A DNA stretch of 63,816 bases, from assembly GCA_026395295.1 (NCBI GenBank), contig JAPLYZ010000011.1, positions 1 to 63,816 on the forward strand, given 5' to 3'. The DNA comes from Candidatus Staskawiczbacteria bacterium (GTDB lineage Bacteria > Patescibacteriota > Minisyncoccia > Minisyncoccales > Staskawiczbacteraceae). Numbering within the stretch: position 1 is the first letter of the stretch; every line of letters begins with the position of its first letter. A program made the position numbers and the translations under genes. Below, piece after piece: positions 4,533-61,699 of the stretch. The notes under the pieces were generated by a model. That model saw nothing but the letters and a program-made list of their open reading frames with translations. It had not been told where the DNA came from and ran no database searches.

Positions 4533-5996
4533 ATGATAATTCCAAAAGAGGTCAAAAATGTAATTGGAAAATTGGAACAGGCCGGATATGAAGCATATAT
4601 CGTAGGCGGATGCGTGCGCGATTTTTTATTAGGCATAGAGCCAAAGGATTGGGATGTTACAACAAATGCTAAACCCGAAGAAATCCAAAAAGTTTTTCCG
4701 GACAGTTTTTACGAAAATAATTTTTTGACTGTTACCGCGCGCACTGGAAGCAAAAAACCCGAGCTTGCCGAGATAGAAATTACAACTTACAGATTAGATG
4801 CAAAGTATTCTGACAAGCGCCATCCTGACGAGGTAAAATATGCAGAGAAGCTGGAAGATGATTTAAGTCGCAGAGATTTCACCGTCAACGCAATGGCCCT
4901 TCGACTCGGCTCAGGGCAAGCCAAAAAAGAAATTGTTGATTTGTTTGAAGGGCAGAAAGACTTGAAGAATAAAATAATCAGAACAGTTGGCAAGCCGGAA
5001 GAAAGATTTAATGAAGATGCTTTGCGAATGTTGAGAGCCGTAAGGTTTGCGACTACTTTAGGTTTTACAATTGAAGAAAAAACAGCAGAGGCAATTAAGA
5101 AAAACAGCGTTTGGTTGGAAGCAATTTCCAAAGAAAGAATAAGAGATGAATTTGTGAAAATAATTATGGCAGATAAAGCCGCCGAAGGAATTGAATTGTT
5201 GCGCGAGATGGGTTTGTTAAAATTTATTGTGCCTGAACTTTTGGAAAATTACGGCGTGGCGCAAAACAAGCATCATATATACGACTCTTACCAGCATCTG
5301 GTAAAGTCTTTGGAGTACGCCGCCAAAAAAAAATTTAATATGTATGTAAGGCTGGCGGCTTTGCTTCACGATGTTGCCAAAGCCAGAATTAAGGCAGGCA
5401 AAGATGAAGAGGCAACTTTTTACAATCATGAAATTGTGGGAGCAAAAATGACATTTCAAATTTTAAACCGTTTAAAATTTTCCAAAAAAGAAGTTGAGAA
5501 AATTACAAAGTTAGTCAGATACCATATGTTTTATTACAATGTTGACGAGGTAGGAGAATCATCTGTGCGACGATTGATAAAAAATGTTGGACCGGAAAAT
5601 ATAGAAGAGCTTTTGCAGGTGAGATTGGCAGATAGAATTGGTTCTGGCGTGCCAAAAGCCGAACCTTATAAACTAAGGCATTTTAAATATTTGGTTGATA
5701 AAGTTTCCAAAGACCCAATTTCTGCTAAGATGCTGAAGGTTGATGGTGCCGACATAATGAAAATTTTGGACATAAAGCCCGGGCCAAAAATTGGACAGAT
5801 TTTGGATGTTTTGTTGGGATATGTTTTAGATGAACCTAAAAAAAATACTAAGGAATTTTTAGAACAGGAAGTTGCAAAACTGGGTAAATTAGGCGATAAA
5901 GAATTAGAGATTTTGGCGGAAAAATCTAAAGAAGAAAAATTTGAAGTTGTCACAAAGCAGGACGAAATGACAAAACAAAAATATTGGGTAACATAA
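4533..5996 (+). CDS. cca: CCA-adding tRNA nucleotidyltransferase with HD domain
   Basis: VGGCVRD, DWDVTT, RRDFTVNA, EDALRMLRAVRF, ERIRDE, LLHDVAK. Confidence 0.92.
   Translation: MIIPKEVKNVIGKLEQAGYEAYIVGGCVRDFLLGIEPKDWDVTTNAKPEEIQKVFPDSFYENNFLTVTARTGSKKPELAEIEITTYRLDAKYSDKRHPDEVKYAEKLEDDLSRRDFTVNAMALRLGSGQAKKEIVDLFEGQKDLKNKIIRTVGKPEERFNEDALRMLRAVRFATTLGFTIEEKTAEAIKKNSVWLEAISKERIRDEFVKIIMADKAAEGIELLREMGLLKFIVPELLENYGVAQNKHHIYDSYQHLVKSLEYAAKKKFNMYVRLAALLHDVAKARIKAGKDEEATFYNHEIVGAKMTFQILNRLKFSKKEVEKITKLVRYHMFYYNVDEVGESSVRRLIKNVGPENIEELLQVRLADRIGSGVPKAEPYKLRHFKYLVDKVSKDPISAKMLKVDGADIMKILDIKPGPKIGQILDVLLGYVLDEPKKNTKEFLEQEVAKLGKLGDKELEILAEKSKEEKFEVVTKQDEMTKQKYWVT
4896..4920 (+). repeat. Family B palindrome, in-frame in cca (LRLGSGQ)
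   Basis: GCCCTTCGACTCGGCTCAGGGCAAG; matches copies at 16981, 25979, 56145 and 57016. Confidence 0.8.
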
Positions 5997-6090: not shown

Positions 6091-6135
6091 GTCATTGGGA
6101 ATTGATTGAAAATTGTAAATTGAGAATTGAAAATT
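6091..6135 (+). repeat. Degenerate heptamer (GAAAATT-like) tandem repeat, copy 1
   Basis: GTCATTG...TGAAAATTGTAAATTGAGAATTGAAAATT; near-identical tract at 19489-19540. Confidence 0.7.
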
Positions 6136-6153: not shown

Positions 6154-6227
6154 GGGCCTGTAGTAAAGTGGCATTACGCCTCGTTCGCAACGAGGAGGCG
6201 GCAGTCCGATTCTGCCCAGGTCCACCA
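6154..6227 (+). tRNA. tRNA-Ala(CGC)
   Basis: CCTCG TT CGC AA CGAGG; G3:U70 identity pair; encoded CCA; T-loop variant TCCGATT. Confidence 0.93.
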
Positions 6228-6373
6228 CTTCGCTCCTCACTTTGTTCGGAGCTACGCGGTGCGCGGCACGCGAAATATAATGAAGTGTGCCAAGCATATG
6301 AACTAAGCGAAGTGGTGCCCCGCGAAGCATGCCACGCGAAGCCTTGGCGTAGTGTGGTCTTGCGTAGTGGGGC
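6226..6373. repeat. Cluster of nested family A palindromes upstream of GIY-YIG
   Basis: CTTCGCTCC...GGAGCTACG; GCCCCGCGAAGC-[GCCACGCGAAGCCTTGGCGTAGTGTGGT]-GCGTAGTGGGGC; resembles the insert in dus at 56489. Confidence 0.75.
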
Positions 6374-6381
6374 CTACATTT

Positions 6382-6621
6382 ATGTTCTACGTATATATTT
6401 TGCAAAGTGAAAAAGATAAAAGCAGATATATTGGAGTTACTTCTGATTTGAAAAGGCGTATCAGCGAACATAATTCTGGAAATGCAAAATACTCTAGTTC
6501 AAAACGGCCGTATAGGCTGATTTGGTATTGTGCTTTTTTAGACAAAATAAAGGCATATGATTTTGAAAAATATTTGAAATCCAGCTCGGGATACGCATTC
6601 ACGAATAAGAGATTTTTATAA
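6382..6621 (+). CDS. Small stand-alone GIY-YIG nuclease (UPF0213/Slx1-like)
   Basis: MFYVYILQS...YIGVTSDLKRRISEHN...RPY...AYDFEKYLK; start at ATG 6382. Confidence 0.92.
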   Translation: MFYVYILQSEKDKSRYIGVTSDLKRRISEHNSGNAKYSSSKRPYRLIWYCAFLDKIKAYDFEKYLKSSSGYAFTNKRFL

Positions 6622-9349: not shown

Positions 9350-11287
9350 ATGCCAGGAGAAAAAAATGGGAAAAAACAAAAAGGGATTGTTTATCCGGAG
9401 GTAAAACTCAAAGATGTTTTGAGGGCGTTTTGGAACGGGATTAGACCCAAAAAATTGTTATTTTTTATTATATTGGCGTCCATGATTTCTGTGAACGTGG
9501 TTGCTATTATTATGCCAATTTTTTATAAACAATTTTTTGACATTATTTCAGGGTACCCGCTTGAGGGTCACGGGAATAGTGCAATTATTGCCCAGCAGCT
9601 TTTCAAAATAATTCTTTATGTTTTAGGGCTTAATATGTTGTCTTGGGTCCTTTACAGAATAGCCACATTGGCAAACAACGTTTACGAACCAAGGGTTATG
9701 GCAAATTTGAAACAGCAGTCTTATGACCACTTAATGTCGCATTCGTATTCCTTTTTTGTTAACAATTTTGCAGGGTCACTGGTGCAAAGAGTCAACAGGT
9801 TCGCCAGAGCGTTCGAGAGAATGACAGACAACTTGGTTTGGAATTTGCTTCCTTTAGCGGTACGAGTTGTTTCCATTTTGGTTGTTGTTTTTGTTATTAA
9901 CAAATGGATTGCGTTGGTTATTTTCATTTGGACGCTTATTTTTATATTGTTTAATGTCACTTTTTCGAAATGGAAGTTGAAATACGATATTAAAGCCGCT
10001 GCGATGGATTCTGTCGCCACCGGATACTTGTCTGACACAATAGCAAACCAAAACAATATACAACTTTTTAATGGTTTTAATTTTGAATCTCAAGGTTATA
10101 AAAAGGTTACGAATGAACAGGCAAACGTAACAGTATTTGCATGGAATTTAGATGCGGTGGTGGAAGCAGGGCAGTCGTTTTTAACCATTGCGATAGAATT
10201 TGCTTTATTCTTTTTTTCAATTAAATATTGGGAACAAGGGCTGATAACAATTGGAGTATTTGTTTTGTTACAAGCATATATAATAAATATCATAAACCAG
10301 TTGTGGGGGTTCACAAGGTTAGTGCGAGACACATACCAAAGTTATGCCGATTCAAAAGAAATGGTGGAAATTTTGCTTTTGTCTCACGAAATTAAAGACG
10401 CGCCCGGCGCCAAAGAATTGGTTTTTAAAAAAGGTGAAATTGAATTTAAAAATTTAGGATTTAGCTTCAACTCCACGAGAAGCGTTTTAGAGGATATAAA
10501 TTTAATAATAAAGCCCGGAGAGAAAGTGGCGCTGGTGGGCCCGTCCGGGGCTGGTAAAACAACTTTTGTAAGATTGCTTCTAAGACTGTATTCTGCCACA
10601 GCGGGAAAAATTTTAATTGATGGGCAAGACATTTCAAGCGCAACGCAGGAAAGTTTGAGAAAAAATATTTCCATGGTGCCCCAGGACCCCATTTTGTTTC
10701 ACAGAACTTTGGCTGAAAACATAGCTTATGGGAAGATAAATAATGAACCCGCCTCTGCACAAGGCTACGGCGAGGCGAAGAAACAGATAGAAAACGCTGC
10801 AACCTTGGCGCACTGCGACGATTTTATAAAAGACCTGCCATATGGTTTTGAAACCTATGTTGGAGAAAGAGGGATAAAATTATCAGGCGGAGAGCGCCAG
10901 CGCGTGGCAATTGCCAGAGCGATTCTGAAAAATGCCCCGATTTTAATTTTAGATGAAGCGACATCAAGCTTGGACTCTAATTCTGAAATGCTTATTCAGG
11001 ATGCTTTGAATAATTTAATGCAGAGCAAAACCGTCATCGTAATCGCTCACCGGCTGTCAACAATTCAAAAAATGGACAGAATTATTGTCATTGATAATGG
11101 AAAAATTATTGAGCAAGGAAGCCACAAAGATTTATTGGAAAACGGAAGCGGTTTGTATAAAAAACTTTGGGAGTTACAAGCAGGTGGATTTTTGAAAGAA
11201 GAGGACGACGAACTTCCGGCATCGCCCGAAGAAATACCGGGCGTTGAAGATGAGGAAGAAGCCGAAGGGAAGTTCGCTAATTTTTAA
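9350..11287 (+). CDS. ABC exporter, fused permease/ATP-binding
   Basis: Six TM segments, GPSGAGKT, LSGGERQR, ILDEATS, IAHRLST; two in-frame palindromic inserts. Confidence 0.92.
   Translation: MPGEKNGKKQKGIVYPEVKLKDVLRAFWNGIRPKKLLFFIILASMISVNVVAIIMPIFYKQFFDIISGYPLEGHGNSAIIAQQLFKIILYVLGLNMLSWVLYRIATLANNVYEPRVMANLKQQSYDHLMSHSYSFFVNNFAGSLVQRVNRFARAFERMTDNLVWNLLPLAVRVVSILVVVFVINKWIALVIFIWTLIFILFNVTFSKWKLKYDIKAAAMDSVATGYLSDTIANQNNIQLFNGFNFESQGYKKVTNEQANVTVFAWNLDAVVEAGQSFLTIAIEFALFFFSIKYWEQGLITIGVFVLLQAYIINIINQLWGFTRLVRDTYQSYADSKEMVEILLLSHEIKDAPGAKELVFKKGEIEFKNLGFSFNSTRSVLEDINLIIKPGEKVALVGPSGAGKTTFVRLLLRLYSATAGKILIDGQDISSATQESLRKNISMVPQDPILFHRTLAENIAYGKINNEPASAQGYGEAKKQIENAATLAHCDDFIKDLPYGFETYVGERGIKLSGGERQRVAIARAILKNAPILILDEATSSLDSNSEMLIQDALNNLMQSKTVIVIAHRLSTIQKMDRIIVIDNGKIIEQGSHKDLLENGSGLYKKLWELQAGGFLKEEDDELPASPEEIPGVEDEEEAEGKFANF
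10748..10780 (+). repeat. Family A palindrome, in-frame in the ABC ATPase domain (PASAQGYGEAK)
   Basis: CCCGCCTCTGCACAAGGCTACGGCGAGGCGAAG. Confidence 0.8.
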
Positions 11288-19488: not shown

Positions 19489-19540
19489 GTCATTGAAAAT
19501 TGTAAATTCAATGAAAATTGTAAATTGAAAATTGAAAATT
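19489..19540 (+). repeat. Degenerate heptamer tandem repeat, copy 2
   Basis: GTCATTGAAAATTGTAAATT...TGAAAATTGTAAATTGAAAATTGAAAATT immediately before the hppA start. Confidence 0.7.
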
Positions 19541-30756: not shown

Positions 30757-30827
30757 CTTGAGCAGGTAAGGGGAGTCGCCCCGTCATTCGACGGGGCGCC
30801 CTATCGGATGATAGGGCGAACCCATTT
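30757..30827 (-). repeat. tRNA-3'-end echo with double hairpin in the T-loop, copy 2
   Basis: AAATGGGTT CG ccctatc-atcc-gataggg CG ccccgtc-gaat-gacgggg CG ACTCCCCTTACCTGCTCAAG; last 22 nt identical to the tRNA-Gly 3' end. Confidence 0.9.
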
Positions 30828-30835
30828 GAAGCTTG

Positions 30836-35481: not shown

Positions 35482-35553
35482 GCCCCTGTAGTTCAATGGA
35501 TAGAACAGCTCACTCCTAACGAGCAAATCCAGGTCCGATTCCTGGTGGGGGCA
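35482..35553 (+). tRNA. tRNA-Arg(CCT)
   Basis: GCCCCTGTAGTTCAATGGATAG...CT CCT AA...GGTCCGATTCC...GGGGGCA. Confidence 0.92.
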
Positions 35554-35555
35554 CT

Positions 35556-35625
35556 AAATGGGTTCGCCCTATCATGCGATAGGGCGCCCAGTCGGATGAC
35601 TGGGCGATTCCTACCGAGGGCACTA
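35556..35625 (+). repeat. tRNA-3'-end echo with double hairpin in the T-loop, copy 3
   Basis: AAATGGGTT CG ccctatc-atgc-gataggg CG cccagtc-ggat-gactggg CG ATTCCTACCGAGGGCACTA. Confidence 0.9.
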
Positions 35626-35633
35626 ATAAAATA

Positions 35634-55750: not shown

Positions 55751-56758
55751 ATGGAATTAGGATTCTGGAGAAAACTTAAAAAGCCGATTATGGCTTTGGC
55801 TCCCATGTCCGGGGTAACTGATGAGGCTTTTCGCCTCATGCTTTTGAAATACGGCAGGCCAGATGTTTTTTGGACGGAATTTGTTTCGGCTGAAGGATTA
55901 TTTTCCAAAGGCAGAGATCATTGCTTGAAGCTTTTAAATTTTAACAAAAAAGAGCGCCCCATTGTTGCTCAGTTGTTCGGCGCCAAACCTTCTGACTTTG
56001 AAAAGGCTGCAAGGCTTGTGGCAGAACTTGGTTTTGATGGTGTTGATATAAACATGGGTTGCCCGGACAGAAACATAGAAAAAAAGGGCGGAGGCGCGGC
56101 ATTGATTAAAGATTCCCATTTGGCAAAAGAAATTATCAAAGCAACCCTTCGAGGCGCTCGGGGCGGGCAAAAAAAGATTCCTGTTTCAGTAAAAACGCGT
56201 GTTGGGTACAAAAAGAACCAGATTGACAAATGGATTCCTGCGCTTTTGGAAGAAGACATTGCTGTTTTAACTGTTCATTTTCGCACCAGAAACGAAACAT
56301 ATGCTTCTTCTGCTCGGTGGGAGTTAGCTAAAGAGGTTGTCAGCTTAAGAAATAAATATGCCCCTAAAACATTAATTTTAGGTAACGGCGATGTAAAATC
56401 TCTTGCAGATGCCCGAGAACTGGTTAAAAAATCCGGGGTTGACGGCGTTATGGTTGGCAGAGCTGTTTTGCAGAACCCTTGGTTCTTTGCCCCGCGAAGC
56501 CTTAGCGAAGTGGGGTTTACTAAATTGCCCACTATTCAAGAGAGATTAAAAGCCATTATTAAACACGCTGAAATTTTCGACAAAATTCATAAGGACAGCC
56601 AGCGGAAGAACGGCAGTTATAAGCAGTTTGACGCCATGAAAAAATATTTTCATTCTTACGCAAAAGGTTTTACTGGCGCAAAAGAGCTTAGGGAAAAACT
56701 CATGAAAGTAAAAAATACGGAAGAAACAAAAATGGTCGTAAAAGATTTTTTAAAGTAA
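55751..56758 (+). CDS. dus: tRNA-dihydrouridine synthase
   Basis: LAPMSGVTD, DINMGCP, VSVKTR, GNGDV, GVMVGR; two in-frame inserts. Confidence 0.93.
   Translation: MELGFWRKLKKPIMALAPMSGVTDEAFRLMLLKYGRPDVFWTEFVSAEGLFSKGRDHCLKLLNFNKKERPIVAQLFGAKPSDFEKAARLVAELGFDGVDINMGCPDRNIEKKGGGAALIKDSHLAKEIIKATLRGARGGQKKIPVSVKTRVGYKKNQIDKWIPALLEEDIAVLTVHFRTRNETYASSARWELAKEVVSLRNKYAPKTLILGNGDVKSLADARELVKKSGVDGVMVGRAVLQNPWFFAPRSLSEVGFTKLPTIQERLKAIIKHAEIFDKIHKDSQRKNGSYKQFDAMKKYFHSYAKGFTGAKELREKLMKVKNTEETKMVVKDFLK
56145..56164 (+). repeat. Family B palindrome, in-frame in dus (LRGARG)
   Basis: CCCTTCGAGGCGCTCGGGGC. Confidence 0.6.
56489..56515 (+). repeat. Family A palindrome (opposite orientation), in-frame in dus (PRSLSEVG)
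   Basis: GCCCCGCGAAGCCTTAGCGAAGTGGGG. Confidence 0.8.
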
Positions 56759-58360: not shown

Positions 58361-59911
58361 ATGGTAAAAAAACAACAAAAAAATAAAGAGATTTTGCAAG
58401 CGCGACCGCCGGTGGTAGTTGTTTTGGGGCACGTTGACCATGGCAAAAGTTCTCTTTTAGAGGCCATTAGAGATTTTAGAATAACTTCAAAAGAATCTGG
58501 TGGAATAACCCAGCACATTGGAGCTTATGAAATTGTTATGGATGGCAACCCGCCTTCGCCAGAGGCTTCGGCGAGGCAAAGGAAGATTACCTTTATTGAC
58601 ACTCCCGGGCACGAAGCATTTTCCGCAATGCGCGCCAGGGGAGCTGAGGTTGCTGATATTGCTTTGTTGGTTGTAGATTCGGCCCAATCGGTTCAGCCAC
58701 AAACAAAGGAAGCTGTCATGGCCATAAAAAGAGCGGAAATTCCGATGATTGTTGTGCTTAACAAAATTGACTTGCCGACAGCCAATCCCGGAAAAATAAA
58801 AGGCGAGCTTTCCAAAATAGATGTTTTGGTGGAATCTTTTGGCGGGACAATACCATCGGTTGAAGTCTCGGCTAAAGAAAAAACAGGAATTGATGAATTG
58901 CTGGAAGTTATATTATTGGTTGCTGATTTGCAAGAATTAAAGGCAGAGGTAGATGCGCCTGCAGAGGGCTTAATAATCGAGTCGTACATGGATGGTTCAA
59001 AGGGGCCGGTTGCGACTGCAATCATTAAAAAAGGTGTTTTGAGGGATAAGGATATTATTGCCACGGATTTAGCCATGGCTAAAGTAAAACACTTGGAAGA
59101 CTTTCAAGGCAAAGTGATTGAAGAGGCTTATCCTTCTCAGCCGGTTATTATTTTAGGATTTGAAAAAGTGCCGGCAGTAGGAGAAAAATTTAAGAGCTAC
59201 AAAACCGCAGAGGAGGCGATGGCAAAAATAAAAACAGAACAGCCCAAGAGAGAAATTGCTTCCGCTGTTTTAGACACAGACCCGAACAAAAAAGTTTTAA
59301 ATATGATTTTGAAAGGAGATGTTTTCGGATCGCTGGAGGCGATTGATGGAATGCTGAAAAATTTACCCCAGGATAAAGCCATTTTACGAATTTTGAAATC
59401 TGAGGTTGGAGAAATAAACGAAACAGACGCCAAGCTGGCGGAGATGTCTAAGGCTATAATAATAGGATTTCGCGTCAAAATTAGCCCATTGGTGGCGCAA
59501 TTTATGAAGAATGATTTAGATAGAAGGCTGAGGATAAAAACTTTTGATATAATTTACGAATTAATACAAGATGTGCGACGAAGTTTGGAAAAAACATTGG
59601 AAGCGGAAACAGTTAGAACCGACGTTGGAAAACTTAAAACACTGTTGGTTTTTTGGGGAGAAAAAAACAGGCAAATTGTTGGAGGGAAAATCACCGAGGG
59701 CGAGTTGAAAAAAGGACTCAAGTTGGAGGTTTTTCGTGAAGACAGAAAAGTGGGAGCCGGGAGGATTATTAACCTTCAGCGCGATAAAAAAGACATAGAC
59801 AAGCTTAGCAAGGGAGATGAAGCAGGCATACTTTTTGAAGGCAATATGAAAATTGAAAAAGGAGATATTTTAGTGGCTTACATAGAAGAACGAAAGAAGG
59901 GCGAGTTGTAA
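58361..59911 (+). CDS. infB: Translation initiation factor IF-2 (short form)
   Basis: RPPVVVVLGHVDHGKS, GGITQHIGAY, DTPGHEAF, NKID. Confidence 0.96.
   Translation: MVKKQQKNKEILQARPPVVVVLGHVDHGKSSLLEAIRDFRITSKESGGITQHIGAYEIVMDGNPPSPEASARQRKITFIDTPGHEAFSAMRARGAEVADIALLVVDSAQSVQPQTKEAVMAIKRAEIPMIVVLNKIDLPTANPGKIKGELSKIDVLVESFGGTIPSVEVSAKEKTGIDELLEVILLVADLQELKAEVDAPAEGLIIESYMDGSKGPVATAIIKKGVLRDKDIIATDLAMAKVKHLEDFQGKVIEEAYPSQPVIILGFEKVPAVGEKFKSYKTAEEAMAKIKTEQPKREIASAVLDTDPNKKVLNMILKGDVFGSLEAIDGMLKNLPQDKAILRILKSEVGEINETDAKLAEMSKAIIIGFRVKISPLVAQFMKNDLDRRLRIKTFDIIYELIQDVRRSLEKTLEAETVRTDVGKLKTLLVFWGEKNRQIVGGKITEGELKKGLKLEVFREDRKVGAGRIINLQRDKKDIDKLSKGDEAGILFEGNMKIEKGDILVAYIEERKKGEL
58549..58582 (+). 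repeat. Family A palindrome, in-frame in the IF-2 G domain (PPSPEASARQR)
   Basis: CCCGCCTTCGCCAGAGGCTTCGGCGAGGCAAAGG. Confidence 0.85.
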
Positions 59912-61611: not shown

Positions 61612-61633
61612 ATTGGGTGACGAAAAAGACCTT

Positions 61634-61699
61634 TGTGCGCGGGACAGGAGTCGTCCAGTCATCCGACTGGACGACTCCTGTCGTATGACTGGACGAACC
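61634..61699 (-). repeat. tRNA-3'-end echo with double hairpin in the T-loop, copy 4
   Basis: GGTT CG tccagtc-atac-gacagga GT CG tccagtc-ggat-gactgga CG ACTCCTGTCCCGCGCACA. Confidence 0.85.

Follow-up and report, generated by a model that had tools for sequence, protein, structure and literature searches.

The 79-residue GIY-YIG nuclease encoded behind tRNA-Ala(CGC) forms, together with a leader of short palindromic hairpins (family A units), a cassette docked at tRNA and tmRNA gene 3′ ends. This cassette is probably a selfish element (we put the probability at roughly 0.6), whose enzyme would nick single-stranded DNA at its own hairpin and whose host would insert both the cassette and 28–30-nt copies of the hairpin. 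The window, i.e. the whole stretch of 63,816 nucleotides that was analysed, corresponds to contig C14 of a 903-kb Candidatus Staskawiczbacteria genome (G000), which is 97.6% complete. The locus contains the following features:

6154–6227, forward strand: tRNA-Ala(CGC), the docking site, which contributes its final bases as the left arm of the first hairpin.
6222–6262, reverse strand: tRNA-proximal family A unit (unit 1), with its CGNAG cores on the minus strand, the one predicted to fold.
6263–6317, no strand assigned: variable spacer ending in an 11-nt arm (6307–6317), delimited from the sequence, the predicted fold and homologues.
6317–6373, forward strand: outer, ATG-proximal family A unit, with its 3′ boundary 8 nt short of the start codon.
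6331–6358, forward strand: nested family A unit inside the loop of the outer unit.
6382–6621, forward strand: GIY-YIG nuclease gene, 79 aa, single domain, FExYLKSxSGxAF clade.

The tRNA and the ATG of the nuclease gene (6382; stop at 6621) are separated by 154 nt, and this gap holds three copies of the family A unit, which has the form stem-CGNAGC-loop-GCGNAG-stem. Unit 1 begins within the last bases of the tRNA, and the outer and nested units have the opposite orientation, with eight bases (6374–6381) left between the outer unit and the ATG. The opposed units, one nested in another, had already been recognized in a preliminary description of this DNA, where leader and reading frame were treated together as 6226–6621, and their arrangement is confirmed here. 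The spacer arm is exactly complementary to positions 6223–6233, which gives an alternative long-range stem in the predicted fold, and the same arm is present in homologues. The leader folds as DNA with a z-score of −3.2. The genome contains 19 strict family A units, compared with 4, 1, 0, 2 and 0 in five block shuffles. No Rfam family reached its gathering score in the leader; the only matches were tRNA in the window and tRNA or tmRNA in 20 homologous loci. Two other readings of the frames were rejected: a longer start at GTG 6352, as the first 80 homologues mostly start at the codon equivalent to 6382, and a 130-aa ORF spanning both tRNA genes, which has no Pfam match.

The protein is a bare catalytic domain, as judged from its match to Pfam GIY-YIG (PF01541, E-value 3.4e-18), which is its sole domain, and from an AlphaFold model with a pLDDT of 88. 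Residues Y5, Y16, G18, R26, H30 and E62, which we take to be the catalytic positions, are invariant in 39 of 39 aligned clade members. The closest solved structures are UPF0213 proteins and Slx1/HIGLE (PDB codes 1zg2, 1ywl, 7wme and 6seh), with an E-value of 7.7e-9 by sequence for 1zg2 and Foldseek TMq scores of 0.59–0.75 for the solved relatives. The relation to Slx1/UPF0213-type domains proposed earlier is thus supported, and both the fold and the motif residues are shared. Slx1/UPF0213 proteins are structure-specific repair nucleases or uncharacterised and, to our knowledge, have not been associated with a repeat or with tRNA genes. The match to TIGR01453 is weak (17 bits, cut-off 56). Among the matches listed, the closest named homologue records are from Patescibacteria, two of the top three being Candidatus Staskawiczbacteria, and the hosts of the clade include Patescibacteria, Alphaproteobacteria and Bacteroidota.

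A tree was calculated from 207 small GIY-YIG proteins, drawn from the best 80 of 310 genome hits, from 120 stretches covering the highest-ranked hits in 60 relatives, and from this genome. Two loci without a usable ORF and four ORFs outside 60–130 aa were left out. The query protein is one of 86 that form a single clade (FastTree support 0.993) and share the signature FExYLKSxSGxAF. A family A unit lies within 250 nt upstream of the gene in 72 of the 85 clade members with enough flanking sequence, compared with 1 of 119 other small GIY-YIG genes and 8 of 262 distant windows, counts that include non-independent kin and use a unit pattern designed after the tested loci had been seen. When the relatives are considered alone, the unit is upstream of 8 of 13 clade genes and 1 of 114 others, and the five misses are variant leaders by eye. 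Because the pattern was written after viewing the first loci, the comparison was repeated on loci picked by protein profile score: the unit is present at 16 of 20 loci above ~94 bits (one of which repeats an earlier locus) and at 0 of 20 loci scoring 80–93 bits. The gene and the hairpin are therefore paired in a clade-specific manner, and the enrichment of the repeat around homologues that had been anticipated is found. Units downstream of the gene occur in only 5 of the 85 clade members, so that there is no second end to excise.

A tRNA or tmRNA end is located at most 300 nt upstream in 73 of the 85 clade members, compared with 38 of 119 other small GIY-YIG genes; the corresponding count for the metagenome loci is 58 of 72. 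In 61 of the 73 cases, the distance from the called RNA end to the first core is −1 to +5 nt, and 40 of these 61 have an offset of at most 2, so that their stem is built partly from the tRNA's own last bases. Pairing was found at 99 of 138 positions over 23 distinct stems, compared with a mean of 50.6 and a maximum of 72 after shuffling, although related stems are not independent and a few are mis-parsed. The 114 distinct proteins are distributed over 25 different target RNA genes. The target differs in 2 of 32 protein pairs above 90% identity and in 37 of 90 pairs at 80–90% identity. Additionally, the tRNA 3′ arm is repeated behind the gene at 11 of 71 loci (one of these being a second tRNA), compared with 0.6% of 4,620 control pairs; no such duplication is seen at the window's own cassette. 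Neither the docking at tRNA/tmRNA ends nor the one-sided placement of the hairpins had been part of the preliminary description.

Orthologues above 60% identity are present in 4 of the 60 relatives. The cca-linked tRNA-Ala site is empty in four of the genomes (G024, G020, G012 and G011) and filled in another (G017). These empty sites, together with the switching of targets, show that the cassette moves. Units that are dispersed within coding genes were also found, three of them in the window:

56489–56516, forward strand: dispersed family A unit that keeps the reading frame of dus; 3 of 11 congeneric genomes have this site filled.
58548–58576, reverse strand: dispersed family A unit, in frame in infB; the loop is filled in 4 of 20 congeneric genomes, with family A in 2.
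10747–10775, reverse strand: degenerate family A unit that keeps the frame of an ABC-transporter-like gene.

The dus unit has the same stem and core as one of the leader units, as the earlier comparison of the two had indicated. The ychF unit is a clean 30-bp insert found in 1 of 19 congeneric genomes, and the dnaK and uvrA units, each in 1 of 22, are replacements. The dispersed units are thus lineage-specific and recent. No target-site duplication is visible at the ychF unit, the dnaK and uvrA units being replacements and the infB site too diverged. Within coding genes, family A units occur in both orientations. The unit mostly ends in a CAAG-like tail, and several lineages have nested copies with different sequences in the unit loop. 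No joint skipping the cassette was found in four read runs (contigs only; two RNA runs cover short pieces only), and no carrier of the cassette was found in viral contigs, plasmids (E-value 1e-12) or phages (E-value 1e-10).

Other changes were observed around these sites. The infB loop (window 58540–58590) contains three repeat kinds across four congeneric genomes and is an insertion-tolerant hot spot. The gene or its leader is tandemly duplicated at five homologous loci (L053, L079, L059, L007 and L288), consistent with recombination at the cassette. A second cassette in this genome (L081; G000:C20, 1126–11983) has the same leader and a protein that is 86% identical, and is parted from tRNA-Ala(TGC) by a 10.4-kb island that encodes a serine recombinase, a nucleotidyltransferase and Cap15 pair (CBASS-like), a helicase-nuclease and a tyrosine integrase. 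Six nucleotides of the tRNA end recur before the leader of this paralogue, which suggests that the island probably displaced the cassette and that the paralogue formerly lay directly behind tRNA-Ala(TGC).

Strict docking at conserved RNA gene ends, a one-sided architecture, a duplicated tRNA arm at some loci, and filled and empty alleles would also be expected of a homing endonuclease. Such an enzyme would cut the empty tRNA 3′ end, the leader would refold the target and shield the filled allele, gene conversion would copy the cassette, and the dispersed units would be by-products. Free-standing GIY-YIG homing endonucleases include the T4 Seg family and I-TevI. GIY-YIG ORFs are described in non-intron rRNA inserts of CPR bacteria in the accessible part of PMC11270868, and the cassette resembles both groups in being a selfish nuclease gene at a conserved RNA locus. 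However, it differs from GIY-YIG homing endonucleases in that its enzyme is a lone 79-aa domain lacking a separate DNA-binding domain, and in having a fixed hairpin leader and many unrelated targets (25 different RNA genes with unrelated flanks). Homing also leaves unexplained the lineage-specific units in ychF, dnaK, uvrA, dus and infB and the correlation with copy number described below, and we consider it unlikely.

The relation between gene and copy number was analysed in 250 other genomes of the class, 37 of which have the clade gene by a score of at least 94 bits, a soft boundary. The median excess of units is 7 with the gene and 1 without, the excess being that of the core pattern over its control, with a pattern that has no stem check and in draft genomes that often lack tRNA flanks. 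An excess of at least 10 is seen in 16 of 37 genomes with the gene and 25 of 213 without; if two units per cassette are removed, the former count is still 12 of 37 (p = 0.004). The direction of the association between gene and copy number is the same in 18 of 19 families (permutation p = 2e-4), and near-scoring non-clade GIY-YIG genes have no clear effect (p = 0.07). The predicted genome-level correlation is thus present, but it is incomplete: the clade gene was not detected in 25 of the 41 unit-rich genomes, and the filled relative G017 has an 87% identical orthologue yet no strict dispersed unit matches.

The unit-rich genomes without a detected clade gene may be taken to mean that another enzyme, such as a Y1/RAYT-type transposase, or host repair spreads the units, and that the GIY-YIG gene is only a passenger in a cassette bounded by hairpins and located at tRNA hot spots. 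Y1 transposases are encoded in 34 of 61 related genomes, and the single infB loop that received three kinds of repeat would fit as well. Nevertheless, no Y1 transposase (PF01797) match was found in this 97.6% complete genome, which has private inserts. Among the relatives (30 Y1 loci), family A units lie beside 2 of 27 parsed Y1 genes, compared with 72 of 85 clade genes, and other GIY-YIG clades of these genomes carry other repeats. Hitchhiking on a different enzyme is therefore judged quite unlikely.

The variation of the units bears on the strand that folds. Among 67 distinct units, the two cores vary freely at their middle bases, without a pairing constraint (AA 36, AT 10, TA 10, AG 6, TT 2, GA 2 and CA 1); by contrast, none of the 67 departs from the A or the closing G, and most retain the first G. 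GCGNAGC mini-hairpins show this pattern, and the units may adopt their fold. Such mini-hairpins contain a sheared G·A pair and are more stable in DNA than in RNA, according to the portion of PMC13037366 that was available. On the transcribed (sense) strand, mismatches in the tRNA-proximal stems are A·C in 15 cases and G·T in 1, whereas those in the ATG-proximal stems are G·T in 25 cases and A·C in 7. In the window, unit 1 folds with a z-score of −2.2 on the minus strand, and the nested unit with −2.3 on the plus strand. The split in mismatches and folding suggests that the opposed units likely fold on opposite DNA strands, via sheared G·A pairs of the GNA mini-hairpin motif, and that the first unit likely does not fold in the pre-tRNA. 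The mismatch patterns thus point to folding as single-stranded DNA.

These patterns are difficult to reconcile with a leader that acts as RNA, for example as a terminator, a processing signal or a hairpin that hides the ribosome binding site, and that restrains a toxic or host-serving nuclease uninvolved in the spread of the repeat. The cassette and the tRNA point in the same direction, the last unit is mostly 8–9 nt before the start, purine-rich words resembling a Shine-Dalgarno sequence occur in the last 19 nt at 62 of 135 loci (a raw count without a control), and an 11-bp sense-strand stem can pair with the tRNA end, all of which would suit such a role. On the other hand, the tRNA-proximal unit has A·C rather than G·U mismatches on the transcribed strand (15 versus 1), units occur in both orientations within coding genes, and GNA mini-hairpins are firmer in DNA. 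An RNA function in place of mobility is therefore very unlikely, while a regulatory side role of the leader would be compatible with a selfish element.

If the cassette is a selfish element, as we favor, cutting and mobilization would be performed by the 79-aa enzyme in combination with the host. GIY-YIG enzymes hydrolyse DNA without a covalent intermediate, and a hydrolytic nuclease cannot itself perform strand transfer; joining would thus be left to the host. The enzyme would bind and nick the hairpin on the CGNAG strand when the DNA is single-stranded, either during replication or on uptake via ComEC, and a ComEC-family gene is present in the genome. Cut ends bearing the tRNA-complementary arm would anneal at a tRNA end and be joined by host repair. 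Short units might be captured likewise and retained where the reading frame survives. Choice of the target by base pairing is known from IS200/IS605 elements. Ssn nucleases cut hairpins assembled from two separate oligonucleotides (accessible text of PMC11893778), which makes pairing in trans plausible here. A further-reaching proposal is offered tentatively, as possible and no more: the cassette may be a transposase-free mobile element, among the smallest possible, made up of a bare GIY-YIG nickase and a leader of DNA mini-hairpins, with an arm that pairs with the tRNA/tmRNA 3′ end and so chooses the target, with host repair doing the joining, and it may be one of a set of clade-specific nuclease–hairpin pairs that make palindromic inserts in Patescibacteria genes.

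The closest published systems are the Ssn nucleases (SsnA, cd10448), single-domain GIY-YIG enzymes whose site-specific cleavage is confined to single-stranded DNA and to one strand, at their own NTS hairpins (Chenal et al. 2025, PMC11893778, from the accessible text). The query protein is similar in being a small single-domain GIY-YIG enzyme (79 aa, compared with ~80–100 aa in Ssn) encoded beside an oriented, imperfect and dispersed hairpin repeat, and in both systems enzymes and hairpins form clade-specific pairs. In contrast to Ssn, the SRM pattern is present in 0 of 85 clade flanks, and the three SRM-positive loci, one of them in this genome, belong to another clade. The hairpins are one-sided (with a downstream unit in 5 of 85), unlike NTS-ssnA-NTS and REP-RAYT-REP arrangements; the available text gives hairpins on both sides for 42% of Ssn homologues. 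Docking at tRNA/tmRNA ends is a further difference, and many family A units are inside coding genes, compared with 2% of NTS in N. meningitidis in the same partial source. The query clade is separate in the tree from the SRM-flanked loci L083, L212 and L224, with 39% identity to L083, the comparison being made through these loci and not SsnA itself. Assignment to Ssn was rejected, since SRM flanks and two-sided hairpins are absent.

REP, REPIN and BIME elements, served by RAYT (HUH Y1 transposases; Di Nocera et al. 2013, PMC3733652, as far as its text was available), are likewise short, oriented and imperfect palindromes (20–40 bp) that form opposed pairs, cluster at the enzyme gene and in part lie in frame in genes. 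The differences are the enzyme fold, the lack of any Y1 gene found here, and a family A unit with no GTAG or CGTC tag, and filing under RAYT was rejected as there is no PF01797 match in the genome and units are at 2 of 27 Y1 genes of relatives. The notion of a GIY-YIG and hairpin system analogous to REP/RAYT, raised in the preliminary description, gains from the clade-specific pairing and the copy-number link, but it is not new: Chenal et al. made the comparison (PMC11893778) and, in the accessible text, proposed a REP/RAYT-like origin with transposase-free spread of the repeat as a hypothesis, so that the concept is already in print. No paper on the query clade, its leader or its unit was found in a search with mainly open-access coverage, and the supplements of PMC11893778 may list members; the part of the Minerva preprint (10.64898/2026.09.22.753630) that was accessible does not mention GIY. 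What is likely new here is the query clade together with its unit and its tRNA-end docking, a system that would work like Ssn/NTS with another enzyme branch, hairpin and target.

The genome encodes nine small GIY-YIG genes, with one further match in a 473-codon frame. One of these genes (L083, G000:C8:26053–26277) is Ssn-like with SRM-matching hairpins on both sides, and the published system and the query clade thus occur in one genome. Six others (L082 and L084–L088, on G000 contigs C8, C11, C2, C15, C9 and C10) belong to other clades. Inverted repeats of 12 nt flank two of them; four are at tRNA genes, three of the latter with duplicated tRNA pieces bearing other palindromes. In a neighbouring GIY-YIG group, many of whose members have a KSGWG motif (L352, L357, L359–L361, L363, L365 and L371; L061, L068 and L069), the leader at tRNA ends follows the same logic, an arm pairing with the tRNA end, with a different core.

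The window also contains other repeats. Behind tRNA-Arg, -Gly and -Leu, the tRNA 3′ ends are duplicated, and double hairpins of a second family (629–703, 30760–30830, 35548–35631 and 61632–61673) are placed within the T-loop of these duplicates. An AT-rich heptamer-like repeat is found between tRNA-Pro and tRNA-Ala (6094–6135, 19499–19540), with many copies in congeneric genomes. A short GC-rich in-frame stretch in cca, the gene for the CCA-adding enzyme (4907–4921), resembles another insert family in the infB gene of G007. Two near-identical repeats of 60–110 nt are present in two copies each (17942–18049/28313–28428 and 21717–21829/22498–22610).

The analysis provides a common hairpin repeat, inserted in frame in genes such as dus, infB, ychF, dnaK and uvrA, with a candidate cognate enzyme that can be tested. 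The Ssn principle, a small GIY-YIG enzyme with its own single-stranded DNA hairpin, is extended to a second clade, whose hosts include Patescibacteria, Alphaproteobacteria and Bacteroidota. An enzyme of 79 aa with a putative new single-stranded DNA specificity would also be a useful tool. If mobilization by this enzyme is true, short repeats would be able to spread without a transposase, through a simple hydrolytic nuclease combined with host repair.
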